In this document: piece by piece, positions 3,492 to 44,704 of the stretch
Layout: each line of letters begins with the position of its first letter
Numbering within the stretch: position 1 is the first letter of the stretch
From: an uncultured Gammaproteobacteria bacterium
GTDB taxonomy: Bacteria > Pseudomonadota > Gammaproteobacteria > CAKMZV01
Direction of reading: 5' to 3'
Assembly (NCBI GenBank): GCA_929200535.1
Contig: CAKMZV010000005.1
Span: 12,442-76,441 of the forward strand
DNA length: 64,000 nt
Made by a program: the position numbers and the translations under genes
Notes under the pieces: generated by a model
Database searches by the model: none
The model's input: the letters and a program-made list of their open reading frames with translations, nothing else
What the model was told of the DNA's origin: nothing

Positions 3492-4645
3492 TTCAATTTT
3501 TTTATTGCCTGCTCAATATCGCCAGGTAGTTGTGCTTCATCTTTTAATCTGCTTTGATGAAATTTATCATATTTTTCTTGTGCCAGTTGATCGGCTATTT
3601 GTTTTGTTACGTTTCCTGCATTGGTTAAAACTTCTTGGTTATTAAGTTGTAGAAATGCATCTAATTTTTCACGCCAATCTTTCATAAACATTTGTTTGTG
3701 ATTTTTAGCTTGGAGCTCGGCATAGTCTAAATACATTGTTACAATTCTGTTGAGCGTGTCTAATTCCTCTTTATATAGGCTACCTCTATTAAATATGACC
3801 CGTGTAAAAAAGCGAAAAATTCTCCCCAATTTCGTTGAAAAAAGTGGCAATAGAATGGCTATTACTCACTTTTTCCGCCTCATTGGGAATAATTTTTCAT
3901 CTTTTTTCCATCGTCCCATATTTAATAGAGATAGCCGATAATTTTTAGAAATAGTAACATCTTGTTTTCTTACTTTGTTTCCTTGCCAAGTCGTAAGCCC
4001 CATATTATCTTGCTTGACATCACTACGTTCTGCAATTACCTCGGCGGCGGTATGACCAGTCGCTGCAAAAATAAGTTTGTTTTGCACCACTTTAAAAAAT
4101 TCTTGTGTTTCTTCTGCCTTGGGTTCATAGTCTATGGATAGGGCATAAATATCCGTAATTTTGCGGTAAAAACGTTTTTCACTGGAACGTATATCTCGTA
4201 TCTCTTCTAATAGGTCATCAAAATAATCTTTACCAAAAGGGTTATCAGGATTTTTGAGTTTTTTATTATCAAGAACAAAACCTTTAATAATCAGTTCTTT
4301 TAGTTGCCGTGTTGCCCAAATTCTAAAGTGTGTTCCACGAATGGAATTGACTCGATAGCCTACTGAAATAATCATATCCAAATTGAAGAAATCCATTTGG
4401 TATGTTTTACCGTCTGTGGCAGTTGTTGCAAATTTTGCAACAACTGAATCTTTCTCTAACTCTTTGGTTTTATAGATGTTTTTGATGTGGCGACTGATGC
4501 CACTCTTATCAATGCCAAAAAGTTCTGCCATTTGATTGATGGTAAGCCAAATGGTTTCATCTTTGAGTAATACATCTACCTTTACCTCACCGTCTGGATT
4601 TCGGTAGAGTAAAAAATTGTTATGCTTGTTTGTTGCTTTATTCAC
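3488..4645 (-). pseudogene. rhuM: rhuM-family virulence/Fic-associated protein gene, split by a MITE insertion
   Basis: ORF 3866..4645 (259 aa) matches the RhuM N-terminal and central regions (...WLTINQMAELFGIDKSGISRHIKNIY...NLDMIISVGYRVNSIRGTHFRIWATRQLKELIIKGF...). ORF 3488..3850 carries the RhuM C-terminus (...DYAELQAKNHKQMFMKDWREKLDAFLQLNNQEVLTNAGNVTKQIADQLAQEKYDKF...). The break coincides with the 159-bp TIR element at 3778-3936. Confidence 0.7.
3778..3936. mobile_element. MITE-like element, family B copy 1 (20-bp TIR ggctacctctattaaatatg / catatttaatagagatagcc), inserted in rhuM
   Basis: Near-perfect terminal inverted repeats. A second copy with the same termini and subterminal module (atatgacccgtgtaaaaaagcga) lies at ~41656-41827. 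No ORF of transposase size. Confidence 0.65.
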
Positions 4646-7740: not shown

Positions 7741-7765
7741 ACAAAAAGGTTTTGTTGGTTATTCT

Positions 7766-7805
7766 GAGACTTTTTCACTTGTCATATTTTTTGTGCAAAG
7801 GTCTC
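7766..7805. repeat. minimal family-A element or solo terminus (gagactttttcac...acttgtcatattttttgtgcaaaggtctc) between gatC and gatA
   Basis: Contains the 28-bp family-A terminus (reverse complement of gagacctttgcacaaaagatatgacaagt) paired with a short degenerate gagac half-site. Confidence 0.5.
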
Positions 7806-8091
7806 ACTCTATAATGGTGGGCACAAGATATAATCCAGCTTCTGTTTGTGGGGCATTTTGTTGCATTTTTTCTCGCTGGTCTTTTTCTGTAACTACATCT
7901 TCACGTAATCTTTGGGTGATGGCTAAGGGGCTGGACATTGGCTCTACCTTAGATGTATCCACCTGATTAATTTGATCAATCAAGCTGATAACTTGATTAA
8001 ACTGTTCGGTAAATTTTGGGAGCTCTTGATCATTAAAATGAAGGCGTGCAAGATGAGCAACTTGTTTGATATTTTCGCTTTTTATGGACAT
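7804..8091 (-). CDS. gatC: Asp-tRNA(Asn)/Glu-tRNA(Gln) amidotransferase subunit C
   Basis: 95-aa protein, MSIKSENIKQVAHLARL..., typical GatC size and position upstream of gatA. Confidence 0.85.
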   Translation of the reverse strand: MSIKSENIKQVAHLARLHFNDQELPKFTEQFNQVISLIDQINQVDTSKVEPMSSPLAITQRLREDVVTEKDQREKMQQNAPQTEAGLYLVPTIIE

Positions 8092-8242
8092 TTATTTGTT
8101 GGTTCTTAGTTGATAAGAGGAATGAGGATTGGATGGCTTTTTGAGTAAATAAAATAGCACTTTTTTATCCATTTTAAATTGCTTTTCGTTTTATCCAAAA
8201 TTCTCATATTATAATTGTACAACAGGGGTTATGTATTGGTAG

Positions 8243-9325
<1,083 letters not shown>

Positions 9326-9328
9326 TTT

Positions 9329-9625
9329 GAGACCTTTGTACAAAAGATATGACAAGTAAAAAAGTAAAAAATTGCCTTGATTTTTATTCGCAAGCGCTTC
9401 AAACGCTGTTACTCTATGGTTCGTAAACTCACCAAGAGTAAAAACGCTTTTTGTGTTGTGAAACTTGCGAAGACGGACGTATTAGCTTCATTTCACGCCT
9501 CAATCAGAATAATTTTTTATCTTTTTTCTTTTACCTGCAAGCAGTTCAAACACTGTTACTCTAAGGCTCGCAAGCTCGCCAAGAGTAAAAACGTTTTTTG
9601 TGCCATACTTTTATGTAAAGGTCTC
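9329..9625. mobile_element. MITE-like element, family A copy 1 (TIR gagacctttgtacaaaag...cttttatgtaaaggtctc), with an internal ~70-bp module duplicated
   Basis: Begins 4 bp after the mreB stop. ~95% identical over shared parts to the copy at 30036-30263. Internal module (caagcgNttcaaacRctgttactctaWggYtcgYaaRctcRccaagagtaaaaacgYtttttgtg) is present twice (9379-9450, 9536-9606). Confidence 0.7.
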
Positions 9626-9665
9626 AATTTGTTTCTTTGATGCAATTAGATATGAAGCCCATTAG

Positions 9666-10487
9666 ATGTTGAATTCAACTCTAATAAAAATAGCACGCAA
9701 GGATGATTTACTAAAATTTTTTATTTTTGTTTTCCTTTGTTTGACATTACTCATCGCTCAAAAAGAGTTTCGATATTCCTTTCCTTTGAAAAATTACCTT
9801 TATTTTTGGGTAGAGCCTATTCGTAGCATCCCAGATGTTACTTTTCGTTGGTATCAACAATTCAATAAGTTTTTTTCTGCACTTGAAGGTGATTTACAGA
9901 GCAGAGTAGATTACTTAGAAAAACAAAACACCATACTTTCTGCACAAGTACGTCAATTACCGATTATTAAGCAGCAAAATAAAGAGTTGTTTACATTACT
10001 GGGGGTAAAAGCGGCTGTCCCAAATTTTAATGTAAAATTGGCAGAAGTTAAATACGTCAATAATAATTCTGTTTTACGAGAAATTAGTATTAACCTTGGT
10101 GTGGATGATGGAATTGAGGTCGGGCAAGCGGTGATTGATGCAAAAGGGATTATAGGTCAGGTGAAGTATGTTGGACTGAGTAGTTCAAAAGTACTATTAC
10201 TAACGGCTCCTTCCGTATCTGTTTCTGTGTATAACAAGCGTAATGGCTTGCGTGCTATTACCAACGGCTCTTCAACTGGGTTACGCTTAGATGCACCAGA
10301 TACTGGATTGAATATTCTTGTAGGTGATGTATTTGTGGCAACAGGCTTAGGCAATGTTTTTCCTTCAGGTTATCCAGTGGGTAGGGTAACTAAAATTCAA
10401 TCAGATCGTTATGTGATTAGAACCCAAATGCAACCTGTTACTTCTTTGCAAGCGTTAAAGAAGGTGCTTGTCTTAAAGAAAAATTAA
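9666..10487 (+). CDS. mreC: rod shape-determining protein MreC
   Basis: Position after mreB, coiled-coil N-terminus and beta-rich C-terminus with MreC-like G-rich motifs (GLGNVFPSGYPVGRV). Confidence 0.85.
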   Translation: MLNSTLIKIARKDDLLKFFIFVFLCLTLLIAQKEFRYSFPLKNYLYFWVEPIRSIPDVTFRWYQQFNKFFSALEGDLQSRVDYLEKQNTILSAQVRQLPIIKQQNKELFTLLGVKAAVPNFNVKLAEVKYVNNNSVLREISINLGVDDGIEVGQAVIDAKGIIGQVKYVGLSSSKVLLLTAPSVSVSVYNKRNGLRAITNGSSTGLRLDAPDTGLNILVGDVFVATGLGNVFPSGYPVGRVTKIQSDRYVIRTQMQPVTSLQALKKVLVLKKN

Positions 10488-22815: not shown

Positions 22816-22825
22816 TTCTAATCTG

Positions 22826-22857
22826 CGACCTTTGCATCTCTTTTATGCAAAGGTCTC
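22826..22857. terminator. perfect palindromic hairpin (gacctttgcat-ctctttt-atgcaaaggtc) = minimal family-A element; likely bidirectional terminator between convergent genes
   Basis: 11-bp perfect stem with 7-nt loop, 11 nt after the hlyD stop. Sequence equals fused family-A termini. Confidence 0.5.
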
Positions 22858-23248
22858 AATCTATAACAATTTCCTCTTTATTAAACTTTTTCCTAACAAA
22901 GTTAAGGGCAGGGAGGAGATTGAATTTTTGAATAAAATATCTCTCAAACTTTTGCTTTTTAGGAAAATCTAACAGAATAATACCGATAAGAATGGTGAGG
23001 ATGCCTTGACCAGGGGTGAATAGAAAAACAATCCCAATCAATAAAAAGAACACCCCAAAAAAATTAGAAACAAAAAATAAAATGGGGTTTTTTCGCCTCT
23101 TTTCTTTGATGAAATAATCATACGGGATTTTGCAAATTAAAAACGGAGTAATCAACAGAGAAACCACAAATAGCGTGGCACTAATTATCGAAATATAGAG
23201 CAAAATAGTAGTGTAATCAAGACTTGAGATAAATTCTATAATATTCAT
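22856..23248 (-). CDS. small inner-membrane protein (PGPGW-like)
   Basis: 130 aa, 3-4 predicted TM helices, TPGQGILTILIGIILLDFP motif. No confident family. Confidence 0.45.
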   Translation of the reverse strand: MNIIEFISSLDYTTILLYISIISATLFVVSLLITPFLICKIPYDYFIKEKRRKNPILFFVSNFFGVFFLLIGIVFLFTPGQGILTILIGIILLDFPKKQKFERYFIQKFNLLPALNFVRKKFNKEEIVID

Positions 23249-23299: not shown

Positions 23300-24835
23300 C
23301 TAATTTATCGATAGGGTCGAGAGATTGAGGAAATTGCCATCGGTGGAGAGTTGGTAATTTTTGGCTCGAGAGCTAAGGACGACGAATTGGTTTTCGTACC
23401 ATAGTGAAACGTAGGGGAGGTCTTTTTGTAATTGATGTTGCAGTTGAAAGTAATATTTTTTCTTTTCGTCGATGCTTTGGGCTTGGTCACCTTTTTCAAT
23501 AAGTTTATCAGCTATTGGATTAATGTATTTTCCGCGGTTTGCTCCCTTAGGGGGAATCATCGAACTGTGGAACACATAACGATAAATATCAGGTTGTTTA
23601 ATACCAACCCATGAAAGTGAATAGAGTTGAAAACTGCCTTTTTTAATATCACCATAAAAAGTACCCCAATCATAACTTTGAATAGTAATATTGATATTGA
23701 TTTTTTTGAGTTGATGTTGGATAAGGGTAGCAACGCGCAAACGAAAGGCGGATTTTGACGTTTTATAAGAAAGCTCTAAAGGGTTGTTTTTATCATAGCC
23801 AAGCGTTTTAAGAAGTGCAATCGCTTGTTCAGGTTGGTAGGGGATATCGTTAAGGGTATCATCGGATGACCAATGTTCCCTTGGTAGCAAAGTTTGAGCA
23901 AGGCGGGCACGCTGGTTAAAAAGATATTGAATAATTTCTTGGCGGTTAATGCCGAGTGAAATGGCACGCCTAATTGTGCTGTTAGAGAGGATAGCATCTT
24001 GCAGGTTCATCCCGAGATAGGTGTAGCTACTTCCGAGTTTTTCCTTAACAATTAACTCCTTTTGTTGCGAGAGATATTTAATCAACTCTTGCGATAAGCC
24101 ATTTTGAATAATATCAATTTCTCCCTTAAGGATTTGCAGGGTTTTAACGGTATCGTCCCTACTTACAAGAAACTGAAAAATTTTATTATCCTTTTTTCGC
24201 TTGAGGTAAACATCGCCCTCGCCATCCCAATGGGCAAGTTGAAAACTACCACTGCCATTATGTTTTTTAATATTTTTGCCAGCGAGTTGAGTGCGTGGAA
24301 TAATACCAATCACCAGATTAGCAGGAAATAGAATATCCGGTTTTTTCAGGATAAAATCCACCGTTGTGGTATTGATTTTGACAATCTCCTTGATATTGAG
24401 CAGACTTCCGCGATGTGGCGAGCCCGTATTTTTATCCAACACCGATTGATAAGTGGCAATAAAATCCTCAATCTGCAAAGGTGTACCATCAGTAAAAGTA
24501 GGGCTACCTATCAGTCTAAAACGGTAATGAGAGTTACTAAGTTGTTGCCAATCGCTAAGCCACGCAATGGGATTACCCTCGCTATCAAACTTAACAGGAG
24601 CCTTATAAAGCAACTGAGCAATGCGAAAAGAAACCGCATCAGTCGCAAAACGAGGATCCAAAGTGCGCGGTGCGGATTTAATGGCAAACACAATATCGCT
24701 CTGTTTGGGTAAAGCAGTATCGGCAGTATTTGTGCCCTCAATAGAAGAGGAATTTGAGCAAGCGGTGAGGAATAATCCTGTTAGATATACAAGAAAGTTT
24801 TTTTTAAAGATTTCGCATTTAATAGAGGTAGCCAT
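23300..24835 (-). CDS. ABC-transporter substrate-binding lipoprotein, family 5 (OppA/DppA/NikA-like), orphan
   Basis: Lipobox LTACS, SBP_bac_5 architecture over the full length. No permease or ATPase genes adjacent. Confidence 0.8.
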   Translation of the reverse strand: MATSIKCEIFKKNFLVYLTGLFLTACSNSSSIEGTNTADTALPKQSDIVFAIKSAPRTLDPRFATDAVSFRIAQLLYKAPVKFDSEGNPIAWLSDWQQLSNSHYRFRLIGSPTFTDGTPLQIEDFIATYQSVLDKNTGSPHRGSLLNIKEIVKINTTTVDFILKKPDILFPANLVIGIIPRTQLAGKNIKKHNGSGSFQLAHWDGEGDVYLKRKKDNKIFQFLVSRDDTVKTLQILKGEIDIIQNGLSQELIKYLSQQKELIVKEKLGSSYTYLGMNLQDAILSNSTIRRAISLGINRQEIIQYLFNQRARLAQTLLPREHWSSDDTLNDIPYQPEQAIALLKTLGYDKNNPLELSYKTSKSAFRLRVATLIQHQLKKININITIQSYDWGTFYGDIKKGSFQLYSLSWVGIKQPDIYRYVFHSSMIPPKGANRGKYINPIADKLIEKGDQAQSIDEKKKYYFQLQHQLQKDLPYVSLWYENQFVVLSSRAKNYQLSTDGNFLNLSTLSIN

Positions 24836-29993: not shown

Positions 29994-30035
29994 ATTGGTT
30001 AAGGTTAATTTAGAAAATGAAAATTTATAAAAGTT

Positions 30036-30263
30036 GAGACCTTTGCACAAAAGATATGACAAGTAAAAAAGTAAAAAGTTGCCCTGATTTTTATCCGCAA
30101 GCGGTTCAAACGCTGTTACTCTATGGTTCGTAAACTCACCAAGAGTAAAAACGCTTTTTGTGTTGTGAAACTTGCAAAGACGGACGTATTAGCTTCATTT
30201 CACGCCTCAATCAGAACAATTTTTTATCTTTTTTCTTTTGCCATACTTTTATGCAAAGGTCTC
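30036..30263. mobile_element. MITE-like element, family A copy 2 (228 bp; TIR gagacctttgcacaaaag...cttttatgcaaaggtctc)
   Basis: Near-identical to 9329-9625 but with a single internal module. 18-bp perfect TIRs. No coding capacity beyond a ~25-codon ORF. Confidence 0.7.
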
Positions 30264-30372
30264 AAGTTATTTAATTAATTATACTTGCCCACGTAAGTAT
30301 TAGAGGTAGCTTTGTTTAAGAGAAGATTAATGCTTAATACACTACTATGCATAATATTTTCATCTCTTTAAT

Positions 30373-32710: not shown

Positions 32711-33709
32711 TTATCCGCCGAGTGATACCATTTGACGAAATTCAATATTTTTTCGATTTTCATTGAAAAAATGACGCTCTGGTTTTAGTTCCATCGATTT
32801 GACAATCATAGCCTCAAGTTCATTATCGCTGATGCCATCACGTATTGGTTGGCGTAAATCAATGGAATGTTCTTGCCCCAGACATAAGGCAAGCGTGCCT
32901 CTTGAGGTGAGACGTACGCGGTTGCAGGTGGCACAAAAATGTTGTGATACAGCGGAAATAACGCCGATACCGAGGTGTTTTTTTTCAGTACGGTAGTATT
33001 TTGCCGGTCCACCACCTTGGCGGCTAATGCTCGGAATTAGTTTTTCACCAAGGTGTTTTTCAACCCGCTCAAGCATTTCTTGCATTGGGATGTGTTTGTT
33101 CATTGAGTCAATCCCAGATTTTCCAATCGGCATTATTTCAATAAAGCGTAATTCAAGCCCGTATTTTGCGCTCCAATCAATGAGGTTTTCCATTTGGTCG
33201 TCATTAACTCCTCTCATCATTACGGTATTGATTTTGATTGGATCAAAGCCAATTTTTTTGGCTTGATAAATGCCTGTGAGAACTTTATTAAGGTTTCCAC
33301 CTCGGGTGATGCGATTAAATTCATCTGCGTTGAGCGTATCTAATGAAATATTCAGACGCCTAATGCCTGCTTGATAAAGGGGTTTTGCATAGCGTTCTAA
33401 GCGAGTGGCGTTAGTGGATAATGAGAGATCTAAATTGTCATTATCTTGGTTTATCATTGATACTATTTCGGTTAGATCTTTGCGTAAAAGAGGTTCGCCT
33501 CCAGTAAAGCGAATTCGCTTTACTCCAAGACGCACAAAAGCGGAGCAAATGCGAGAAATTTCTTCGGCAGTTAAATATTCAGTGTATTTGCCATTGGGGT
33601 GAACTCCTTTTGCTGGTGAGCAATAATCACAACGCAAATCACATTTATCCGTTACAGAAACGCGGATATAAGTAATTTCACGACCAAATGAATCAATTAG
33701 ACTTGTCAT
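32711..33709 (-). CDS. moaA: GTP 3',8-cyclase (radical SAM, molybdenum cofactor biosynthesis)
   Basis: CDLRCDYC radical-SAM cluster motif, C-terminal second cluster (CATCNRVRLTSRG), full-length MoaA similarity. Start codon lies inside a solo family-A repeat terminus. Confidence 0.9.
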   Translation of the reverse strand: MTSLIDSFGREITYIRVSVTDKCDLRCDYCSPAKGVHPNGKYTEYLTAEEISRICSAFVRLGVKRIRFTGGEPLLRKDLTEIVSMINQDNDNLDLSLSTNATRLERYAKPLYQAGIRRLNISLDTLNADEFNRITRGGNLNKVLTGIYQAKKIGFDPIKINTVMMRGVNDDQMENLIDWSAKYGLELRFIEIMPIGKSGIDSMNKHIPMQEMLERVEKHLGEKLIPSISRQGGGPAKYYRTEKKHLGIGVISAVSQHFCATCNRVRLTSRGTLALCLGQEHSIDLRQPIRDGISDNELEAMIVKSMELKPERHFFNENRKNIEFRQMVSLGG

Positions 33710-33730
33710 ATCTTTTGTGCAAAAGTCTCA
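33701..33730. repeat. solo family-A repeat terminus (acttgtcatatcttttgtgcaaaagtctca) overlapping the moaA start codon
   Basis: 28/30 match to the family-A terminus. The ATG ACA AGT of moaA is the atgacaagt of the repeat. Confidence 0.5.
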
Positions 33731-33889: not shown

Positions 33890-34252
33890 TTAATTTAATA
33901 CTTTATAGCCTCGGTTTTTTAAACATTTTTTAACAATACTGCTTTCTTCTTCATCATTCTTTAAGGCTCCTAAAGCTGTTCCTTCAGTAGCTCCGATGGC
34001 AGCGTGTGTGCCGACATTTTCTGGGTCAATTAAGGCACCAAGAGTACCTCGAAGTAATGCCCCAAAACCCGCACTTTTGGCAATGTTCTTACCGCTTTCT
34101 AACTGCTCTGCGACTTGTTCGCATTCAGCAAGATCAGTTTTATAAGCATCTATATCGATACCTTTAGTGTCGATAACTGGGCGACTGGCACAGGATGAAA
34201 GCAGTAGTGTTGACAGGGCAATTATCCAAAAAATGAAATTTTCTTTAACCAT
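33890..34252 (-). CDS. lipoprotein with glycine-zipper motif
   Basis: Lipobox LLSSC, then GFGALLRGTLGALIDP...GTHAAIGATEGTALGAL glycine-zipper-like segment. Overlaps the dsbA stop. Confidence 0.5.
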   Translation of the reverse strand: MVKENFIFWIIALSTLLLSSCASRPVIDTKGIDIDAYKTDLAECEQVAEQLESGKNIAKSAGFGALLRGTLGALIDPENVGTHAAIGATEGTALGALKNDEEESSIVKKCLKNRGYKVLN

Positions 34253-34871
34253 TTTTTAGTAAATAATTAATTATTTTGAAGATCTCATCTTTTCCCCCGG
34301 CGGTTTTTTCAGAAACACGATACTTCCCTTTAACAATAAAAGAGGGAACGCCTTCAATTTCAGATTTTTCAGTTAATTTTTTAGCTTGGGTCATTAAATT
34401 TTTAACCGCAAAACTATTGTAGGTTTTAGTAACGGTTTCTTTGTCAACTCCAACGCTTTTGAAAATATCGAAAATATCTTCTTGCGAGCGTAGTTGACCA
34501 GAGGAATAACGCTTAAAAATCTCCCCTTGAAGCTCATTGTGTTTTTTCAGTACGAATGCGACGTAGTAAAGTTGGACTGACCATTTGACACGTGGGGAGT
34601 AAAAAGCAGGTTGGTAGTGAAAATTAACTGTAGATTGTTTTGTTTTTAACCACTTTTCAACATATGGGTGAATATTTTTACAATGAGGACAACCATAGTA
34701 AAAAAACTCCACAACCTCAGGTTGCTTAGTCAGCGTGAACTCATTCTTCGGAGGGATTTTAAGATAATGTTTCCCTTCAATATACTTTTCTGCATTGCCT
34801 GACAAAGCAAGCAAAGAGAGAGTAGTTAACAAGAATGCTTTTGATAAAAGTGAAAGTGTTTTTGTTTTCAT
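34245..34871 (-). CDS. dsbA: thiol:disulfide interchange protein DsbA (copy 1)
   Basis: Signal peptide, CPHC active site (FFYYGCPHCKN), DsbA fold length (208 aa). Confidence 0.85.
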   Translation of the reverse strand: MKTKTLSLLSKAFLLTTLSLLALSGNAEKYIEGKHYLKIPPKNEFTLTKQPEVVEFFYYGCPHCKNIHPYVEKWLKTKQSTVNFHYQPAFYSPRVKWSVQLYYVAFVLKKHNELQGEIFKRYSSGQLRSQEDIFDIFKSVGVDKETVTKTYNSFAVKNLMTQAKKLTEKSEIEGVPSFIVKGKYRVSEKTAGGKDEIFKIINYLLKNG

Positions 34872-35027: not shown

Positions 35028-35654
35028 TTAACCATTTTTTAGTAAATAATTAATTATTTTGAAGATCTCATCTTTTCCCCCGGCGGTTTTTTCAGAAACA
35101 CGATACTTCCCTTTAACAATAAAAGAGGGAACGCCTTCAATTTCAGATTTTTCAGTTAATTTTTTAGCTTGGGTCATTAAATTTTTAACCGCAAAACTAT
35201 TGTAGGTTTTAGTAACGGTTTCTTTGTCAACTCCAACGCTTTTGAAAATATCGAAAATATCTTCTTGCGAGCGTAGTTGACCAGAGGAATAACGCTTAAA
35301 AATCTCCCCTTGAAGCTCATTGTGTTTTTTCAGTACGAATGCGACGTAGTAAAGTTGGACTGACCATTTGACACGTGGGGAGTAAAAAGCAGGTTGGTAG
35401 TGAAAATTAACTGTAGATTGTTTTGTTTTTAACCACTTTTCAACATATGGGTGAATATTTTTACAATGAGGACAACCATAGTAAAAAAACTCCACAACCT
35501 CAGGTTGCTTAGTCAGCGTGAACTCATTCTTCGGAGGGATTTTAAGATAATGTTTCCCTTCAATATACTTTTCTGCATTGCCTGACAAAGCAAGCAAAGA
35601 GAGAGTAGTTAACAAGAATGCTTTTGATAAAAGTGAAAGTGTTTTTGTTTTCAT
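35028..35654 (-). CDS. dsbA: thiol:disulfide interchange protein DsbA (copy 2, identical)
   Basis: 100% identical protein to copy 1, within the second 783-bp repeat unit. Confidence 0.85.
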   Translation of the reverse strand: MKTKTLSLLSKAFLLTTLSLLALSGNAEKYIEGKHYLKIPPKNEFTLTKQPEVVEFFYYGCPHCKNIHPYVEKWLKTKQSTVNFHYQPAFYSPRVKWSVQLYYVAFVLKKHNELQGEIFKRYSSGQLRSQEDIFDIFKSVGVDKETVTKTYNSFAVKNLMTQAKKLTEKSEIEGVPSFIVKGKYRVSEKTAGGKDEIFKIINYLLKNG

Positions 35655-41655: not shown

Positions 41656-41827
41656 GAGACCATCTCTATTAAATATGACCCGTGTAAAAAAGCGAGAAAT
41701 TCTTCCTAATTTTATCAGCAAGCTATTTAAACAATCATAAATTTGCCAAGAATAAAAACACTTTTTGTTGTCTCACTGGAGGGATTTTTTAATTTTTTTC
41801 TATTATCTCATATTTAATAGAGGTAGC
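41656..41827. mobile_element. MITE-like element, family B copy 2
   Basis: Same termini (ctctattaaatatg...catatttaatagaggtagc) and subterminal module as 3778-3936. Left end begins gagacc as in family A. Internal segment ccaagaataaaaacactttttgttgt resembles the family-A internal module. Confidence 0.6.
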
Positions 41828-44422: not shown

Positions 44423-44704
44423 AAGAGTCTGTAATTATGTGTGGTTGGTTATCGCTATTCACTGTGAGCCGTGAAAGAAGGCGAAAATCTATCCCCAATT
44501 TTATTAATAAGCATTTCAAACGCTGTTACTTTAAAAATCGAAAAAAATTAGGCTGCCCTAAAGCAATTTCTTATTATATTCGTACAAATAAAAGTTTACG
44601 TAATTTAGTTATCAGGTTGGTGAAAAATCATAACAAGAATTTTAGGAGTATTGAACGCGTTCTATTAGACTTGTTTTTTAAAGAACAACACTCAGGAGAA
44701 AAAT

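Follow-up and report, generated by a model that had tools for sequence, protein, structure and literature searches.

MITEs such as Correia/NEMIS, RUP, Nezha and Chunjie are small and intergenic, form long hairpins and occur within operons, and they sometimes donate stop codons, start codons or promoters. Their ends, target duplications and partner transposases are other than those of the element described below; Correia, for one, duplicates TA. A terminus that this element carries has been published, over 12–15 nt, for the BrickBuilt MITE of Porphyromonas gingivalis and for ISNme1, an IS5-family element from which the type II MITE ATR of Neisseria has been proposed to derive (PMC4596501). ISAba23, a 1249-bp member of the IS5 family, has 16-bp inverted repeats and generates a 5-bp target duplication (PMC4110982).

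The element occupies positions 9329-9625 of the window (the whole 64-kb stretch of DNA analysed), between the stop codon of mreB (TAG, 9323-9325) and the start of mreC (9666). An earlier note on this DNA had described a non-coding element of 297 nt at this place, and the sequence bears this out. We consider it, with a probability of about 0.88, to be a non-autonomous type II MITE with ISAba23-like IS5-family terminal inverted repeats.

Anatomy of the element and its copies in the window

Three bases, TTT (9326-9328), separate the mreB stop codon from the element, which thus begins at the fourth base past the stop; the earlier distance of 4 bp is right as to adjacency and one base too long. The following features can be distinguished.

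9324..9328, no strand: left target-site duplication AGTTT, overlapping the last two bases of the mreB TAG and matching the right duplication AATTT at four of five positions
9329..9346, + strand: left terminal inverted repeat GAGACCTTTGTACAAAAG, an IS5-family, ISAba23-like terminus one base off the left end of a metagenome IS (L064, see below)
9347..9381, + strand: left inner arm (ATATGACAAGTAAAAAAGTAAAAAATTGCCTTGAT...), homologous to the left arm of elements in other MAGs and of family B (see below) and pairing with the right arm, as judged from alignment and folds
9382..9455, + strand: internal module 1, 74 nt, whose small stem-loop (TTACTCT...AGAGTAA) caps the hairpin formed by the element
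9456..9528, + strand: central segment with the right inner arm (...CACGCCTCAATCAGAATAATTTTTTATCTTTTTTC); assigned to repeat family D6 and 76-78% identical to family B
9529..9602, + strand: internal module 2, not in copy 2 (alignment gap 9536-9604), 84% identical to module 1
9608..9625, - strand: right terminal inverted repeat, reverse complement GAGACCTTTACATAAAAG
9626..9630, no strand: right target-site duplication AATTT

The two ends form 15 Watson–Crick pairs out of 18; on the + strand, G-U accounts for two of the three mismatches. The terminal inverted repeats reported earlier are therefore present but not perfect, and the 18-bp sequence then quoted is the left end of a second copy (GAGACCTTTGCACAAAAG), whose own ends pair at 17 of 18 positions. 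This second copy (copy 2), said to be about 95% identical and one module shorter, does have these properties: it matches the element at 9329-9625 with 96% identity over 209 nt and lacks a stretch of 69 nt (9536-9604 in the alignment). A recent duplication of the internal module, also proposed earlier, does not agree with the divergence observed. Module 1 is about 96% identical between both elements, while modules 1 and 2 of the longer one share 84% identity, so that module 2 is not a recent in-place duplication. The two modules differ by a compensatory stem change (GGT..ACC to GGC..GCC). It may instead have been acquired by recombination or template switching with a diverged relative. A direct repeat around module 2, as could be expected if the module itself were mobile, amounts to just an ambiguous ACC/GCC.

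The 18-nt end, with up to three mismatches allowed, occurs seven times in the window versus 0.1 expected by chance. Besides the element at 9329-9625, one more full copy and three shortened ones were found, so that the window holds two full and three shortened copies in total.

30031..30268, + strand: copy 2, 228 nt (30036-30263), with its duplications, the perfect 5-bp flanks AAGTT/AAGTT; between rseC/mucC-like and degP-like genes, both on the - strand
7762-7805, - strand: truncated copy of 44 nt, left end plus left arm, ending in ...AAAAGTCTC; located between gatC and gatA
22825-22857, no strand: mini-form of 33 nt, reduced to its two ends (GCGACCTTTGCAT-CTC-TTTTATGCAAAGGTCTC); in the space that separates a pair of convergent genes
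33701-33729, - strand: left-end remnant of 29 nt, matching the element left end at 29 of 30 positions; at the start of a moaA-like ORF (32711-33709, - strand)

Several of the shortened copies touch the ends of genes. The spacer between gatC and the next gene, assumed to be gatA, is 63 nt long here versus 14-30 nt in relatives. The gatC stop codon TGA (7804-7806) is composed of a T and the GA of the element end (TGAGACC), and the stop TGA (22856-22858) of a 130-aa ORF (22856-23248, - strand) is formed in the same way by the mini-form. Apparently, insertions set the ends of both of these genes. The remnant at 33701-33729 covers the 20-nt leader of the moaA-like gene, its ATG and the next two codons; the N-terminus of this ORF is, by comparison with E. 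coli MoaA, of the usual length, and the truncated element appears to supply the start of the gene. A separate feature of this part of the window is a DsbA-like gene of 208 aa present twice in tandem (34245-34871 and 35028-35654) with a period of 783 bp. The two proteins are identical and 300 nt of DNA are 100% identical, which leaves very recent duplication or an artefact of assembly as explanations of the tandem.

Distribution of the family and its IS5-type termini

A scan for GAGACCTTTGYAYAAAAG, using one genome per species, returned at least 58 loci; by estimate, several tens of chance matches are to be expected in a collection of this kind. Two Thiotrichaceae MAGs are rich in such loci (M17 bin 180, at least 14; T2 bin 050, at least 6), and copies were also present in Cocleimonas, Thiomicrorhabdus and Piscirickettsiaceae MAGs among the matches listed. 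Paired ends in other genomes delimit elements of 76, 139, 159, 211, 222 and 288 nt. Alignment revealed that the elements from MAGs share about 50 nt at each end with those of the window and differ in the middle: forms of 76–77 nt consist of the two arms alone, and the longer ones hold different stem-loop inserts. More than 20 elements of other genomes have kept the 18-nt ends, and all 20 family members whose position was examined are intergenic. Further searches for copies, made in metagenomes with the window-specific left end, in viral contigs, and in a protein collection with the longest spurious ORF of the element, yielded three chance matches, none of them with a GAGACC terminus, no matches and no candidate, respectively. 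Matches to the 18-mer in Thermophagus and in a Bacteroidia MAG were rejected as coincidence, being located inside a carboxyltransferase gene where they code for SETFAQKIC.

The family bears clear traces of transposition. Flush perfect 5-bp direct repeats flank 13 of 25 elements, and three more elements have such repeats with one mismatch; no element has flush repeats of 4 or 6 bp, and when left and right flanks were paired at random, perfect 5-bp repeats numbered 0.5 on average and never more than 4. At one locus (L019), a 159-nt copy is nested in a 223-nt copy, and removal of the nested copy together with one TATTC restores an element that is 97% identical to an independent copy. The earlier view that the element belongs to a mobile family, as opposed to being present in only two copies without target-site signatures, is thus upheld by the duplications and by the occurrence of the family in several genomes.

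A few members deviate from the common pattern. One 159-nt element (L062, 982-1140) is flanked by a 9-bp direct repeat (TTAGTAATT) rather than the usual 5 bp. A 288-nt member (L029, 4390-4677) carries a GC-rich insert of about 130 nt in an otherwise AT-rich element, and this insert may be another nested element. A different family was encountered in a Desulfobacterales MAG (OY759308.1; L007, L023 and L047), from an unrelated phylum: its elements measure 195-303 nt, share the 14-nt ends GAGACCTTTGCACA and have 6-bp duplications.

The family terminus GAGACCTTTGCAC(A/G)AAA is the terminus of IS5-family elements. In one match to it (L050), the terminus is followed by the N-terminal part of a DUF772 transposase, and a relative of this transposase gene was found in a complete metagenome IS of 1214 bp (L064, 2916-4129). 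The left end of the L064 IS, GAGACCTTTGCACAAAAG, is identical to the left end of copy 2 (18 of 18 positions) and matches 9329-9346 at 17 of 18; the right end of this IS reads GAGACCTTTGCAAAACC when reverse-complemented. After repair of a frameshift, the L064 transposase scored 254 bits against the NCBIfam model NF033581 (IS5 family; cut-off 140), and it is 50% identical to that of ISAba23. The right end of ISAba23 in plasmid pIP1858, GAGACCTTTGCACGAAACAG, agrees with the left end of copy 2 at 16 of 17 positions and with a variant from MAGs at 17 of 17, and shares its first 13 nt with 9329-9346. The interior of the element is unrelated to the IS, only the ends of about 18 nt being common to both, which defines it as a type II MITE.

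The 5-bp duplications of the MITE family are of the same length as those of ISAba23, while the L064 IS is flanked by a 7-bp repeat (GTAAAAT). This single case (n=1) suggests that the L064 IS is probably not the actual mobiliser, and, taken together with the 6-bp duplications of the Desulfobacterales family, it points to an ISAba23-like enzyme, yet to be found, as the mobiliser of the 5-bp family. The L064 transposase gene is split by the frameshift near GAAAATAGC into ORFs of 81 and 241 aa, with the same split in all three contigs retrieved, and could be a pseudogene or be subject to programmed frameshifting. An end search and tblastn with an IS5 transposase detected no transposase or full-length IS with these ends in the 64-kb window, and no mobiliser gene of the 5-bp family was identified in the window or the fetched loci. 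The longest ORFs of the element itself (87 and 98 aa) had only Pfam matches with E of 0.026 or more, below the cut-off.

Hairpin structure and the mreBCD operon

Both full copies in the window are predicted to fold end to end into a long hairpin, with energies of -73.9 kcal/mol (z = -3.4) for the element at 9329-9625 and -72.8 kcal/mol (z = -7.4) for copy 2. The earlier note had called for folding of the internal module; in the predicted structure, module 1 forms the stem-loop at the hairpin apex, whereas module 2 branches off to the side, after the right arm and before the right end, and leaves the main stem unbroken. Covariation was analysed for ten elements of the 159-nt class, representing about four independent lineages, over 53 predicted pairs. 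In this set 93% of cells were paired and 18 of the 53 pairs had changed on both sides; none of 500 shuffles reached these values, and slid controls were 38-51% paired. The complementarity of the two halves of the element is maintained, and the data fit selection on RNA, selection on DNA and conversion between the arms, without saying which. The asymmetry of G-U over A-C pairs, counted for the strand folding as RNA (22 to 8), is dominated by one inherited column and is therefore uninformative on the strand.

Exact matches to the MreB of the window were found only in the metagenome assemblies ENA COST21-1 and JGI 3300034379. At mreB, two strain contigs contain the whole element, and in three others the assembly stops after 77 or 104 nt of it; breaks inside the element in three of five assemblies are as expected for a repeat. 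Both window insertions, mreB-mreC and rseC-degP, were present in every strain contig retrieved, and the recent mobility that had been supposed for these loci is thus not supported. The nearest MreB proteins, 74–81% identical, point to the Thiotrichales; their genes are followed by mreB-mreC spacers of 55–82 nt that do not carry the element and that, at this distance, are not alignable with the spacer of the window. A 470-aa "MreB" relative (P0008) was set aside: it is an internally duplicated MreB, probably an assembly chimera rather than a case of in-frame insertion.

Recruitment of the element as a functional RNA or DNA structure, that is, a terminator, an attenuator or an mRNA-stabilising hairpin setting the mreB:mreCD ratio, would add to a MITE origin and not replace it. 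Such a role might be proposed since the long stable hairpin occurs in both window copies, is kept by compensatory changes across the diverged lineages of the 159-nt class and accommodates extra modules where the main stem stays intact; moreover, copies or remnants are located inside three operons (mreB-mreC, rseC-degP and gatC-gatA). However, a terminator scan of 8100-9900 on both strands detected no intrinsic-terminator-like site within 9329-9625, the T run of the modules beginning about 7 nt past the stem. No match to Rfam 15 was found in the window at gathering thresholds, the element itself giving only sub-threshold noise at E <= 1, and family members in co-directional gene pairs displayed no orientation bias (5 sense versus 4 antisense). 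The terminator or attenuator idea of the earlier note is thus unsupported by these three results. Relatives manage with the shorter spacer, only about four independent lineages contribute to the covariation, and palindromic structure is usual in MITEs, so that a hairpin alone is no proof of function. A regulatory role in mreBCD seems rather unlikely, and the results go no further than to indicate that an essential operon tolerates a predicted, very stable intercistronic hairpin.

A second group of elements in the window, family B, shares the inner arms of the family described above (family A) and has a degenerate module in one copy.

3779-3935: family B element
41659-41827: family B element
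24798-24832: partial family B element
44446-44544: partial family B element

The inverted repeat of family B is GCTACCTCTATTAAATATG and its ends begin with GCTACCTCTATTAAAT, unlike those of family A (GAGACC...). No recognisable target duplication was detected for family B, and no copies of it were found outside the window. As the arms are common to both families, one interior carries two sets of ends. The arms also take up stem-loop modules at places where the main stem is spared, and compensatory changes preserve the hairpin over its whole length across genera. One could hypothesise that the conserved unit is the hairpin as a "chassis" and not the ends, the structure being under selection, spread by several transposases and put to use by the host time and again. 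We regard this as improbable; if true, the chassis might serve to process or stabilise RNA between cistrons, and the positions in mreBCD, rseC-degP and gatCA, as well as the moaA leader and start codon, would be possible recruitments.

Origin of the element and comparison with known systems

The preferred explanation, a non-autonomous type II MITE, supposes that the GAGACCTTTGCAC(A/G)AAA termini are recognised by a DDE transposase whose gene lies elsewhere and which excises or copies the element; insertion would then take place at AT-rich intergenic sites through a cut staggered by 5 bp. The copy at 9329-9625 would have landed exactly on the mreB stop codon, which accounts for the AG of TAG being contained in the left duplication AGTTT, and the distance between mreB and mreC would thereby have grown from about 38 nt to 340 nt. 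Its interior, which is not IS-derived, consists of two complementary arms conserved family-wide and of variable stem-loop modules. For mreBCD, the consequence would probably be a hairpin in the RNA between the cistrons, stable at about -74 kcal/mol and tolerated by the operon. The terminal inverted repeats, 5-bp duplications, lack of coding capacity, several copies and IS5-family ends all sustain the designation as a MITE given in the earlier note. The additional label "REP-like" is not appropriate, since features of REP/RAYT systems are missing and the element has target duplications that REPs do not.

Three other origins were considered. A palindrome of the REP or BIME type, moved by a RAYT (IS200/IS605-like Y1) transposase, would likewise be intergenic, palindromic and present in many copies, and the 33-nt form made of ends only resembles it. 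However, the 5-bp duplications and the nested insertion with its duplication point to cut-and-paste transposition by a DDE enzyme, the inverted repeats of the IS5 family have identical ends, the elements of 76-297 nt are far above REP palindromes of 20-40 nt, and none of the copies showed short palindromes paired in the manner of REPINs, making this origin very improbable. Ends of the Tn3 family are roughly 38-bp GGGG-type repeats. The 5-bp target-site duplication is also made by Tn3-derived miniature elements (TIMEs), but the ends of about 18 nt starting with GAGACC are not of the Tn3 type and match IS5-family elements, of which ISAba23 itself makes 5-bp duplications; derivation from Tn3 is therefore highly doubtful.

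Segmental duplication of a non-mobile intergenic sequence could be suggested by the presence of only two full copies in the window, both fixed in all strains seen. This explanation has next to no probability, because the similarity ends exactly at the inverted ends with unrelated flanks beyond, each copy has its own 5-bp duplication, truncated copies lie elsewhere in the window, and homologous elements occur in other genera. The target duplications, the IS5-type ends, the unrelated flanks and the multi-genome family thus led us to reject the REP, segmental-duplication and Tn3-derived readings.

For annotation, the MITE explains the 340-nt gap in the essential mreBCD operon, the repeated contig breaks in several metagenome assemblies, and odd gene ends such as the element-formed stop codons and the remnant-supplied moaA start. 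The compensatory maintenance of the hairpin and the single interior with two sets of ends are modestly interesting for MITE evolution. Current understanding is unchallenged by the element: the family is apparently new for uncultured, sulfur-oxidiser-like Gammaproteobacteria (Thiotrichales), while the kind of element is well known. A full-text literature search found the terminus reported only in elements of Porphyromonas and Neisseria.

Among known systems, ISAba23 of Acinetobacter shares with the MITE its terminal sequence, which reads GAGACCTTTGCACGAAA at the right end of ISAba23, and the 5-bp duplication. Both ISAba23 and the L064 IS are autonomous, 1.2 kb long and encode a DDE transposase, whereas the MITE has 297 nt and encodes nothing. 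ATR of Neisseria meningitidis is, like the MITE, of type II with IS5-family ends GAGACCTTTGCAAAA (PMC4596501, Table 2). Both are AT-rich and intergenic, and ATR is present in tens of copies; it has another host and presumably another interior. BrickBuilt and MITEPgRS of Porphyromonas gingivalis have the same 12-nt termini, GAGACCTTTGCA / TGCAAAGGTCTC, which match IS5-family ISPg elements, and their composite interior, in BrickBuilt with a minisatellite as an internal tandem array, resembles the composite interior of the MITE (PMC4596501). Duplications of BrickBuilt are variable or absent, whereas the MITE described here combines a consistent 5-bp duplication with a long hairpin bearing stem-loop modules.
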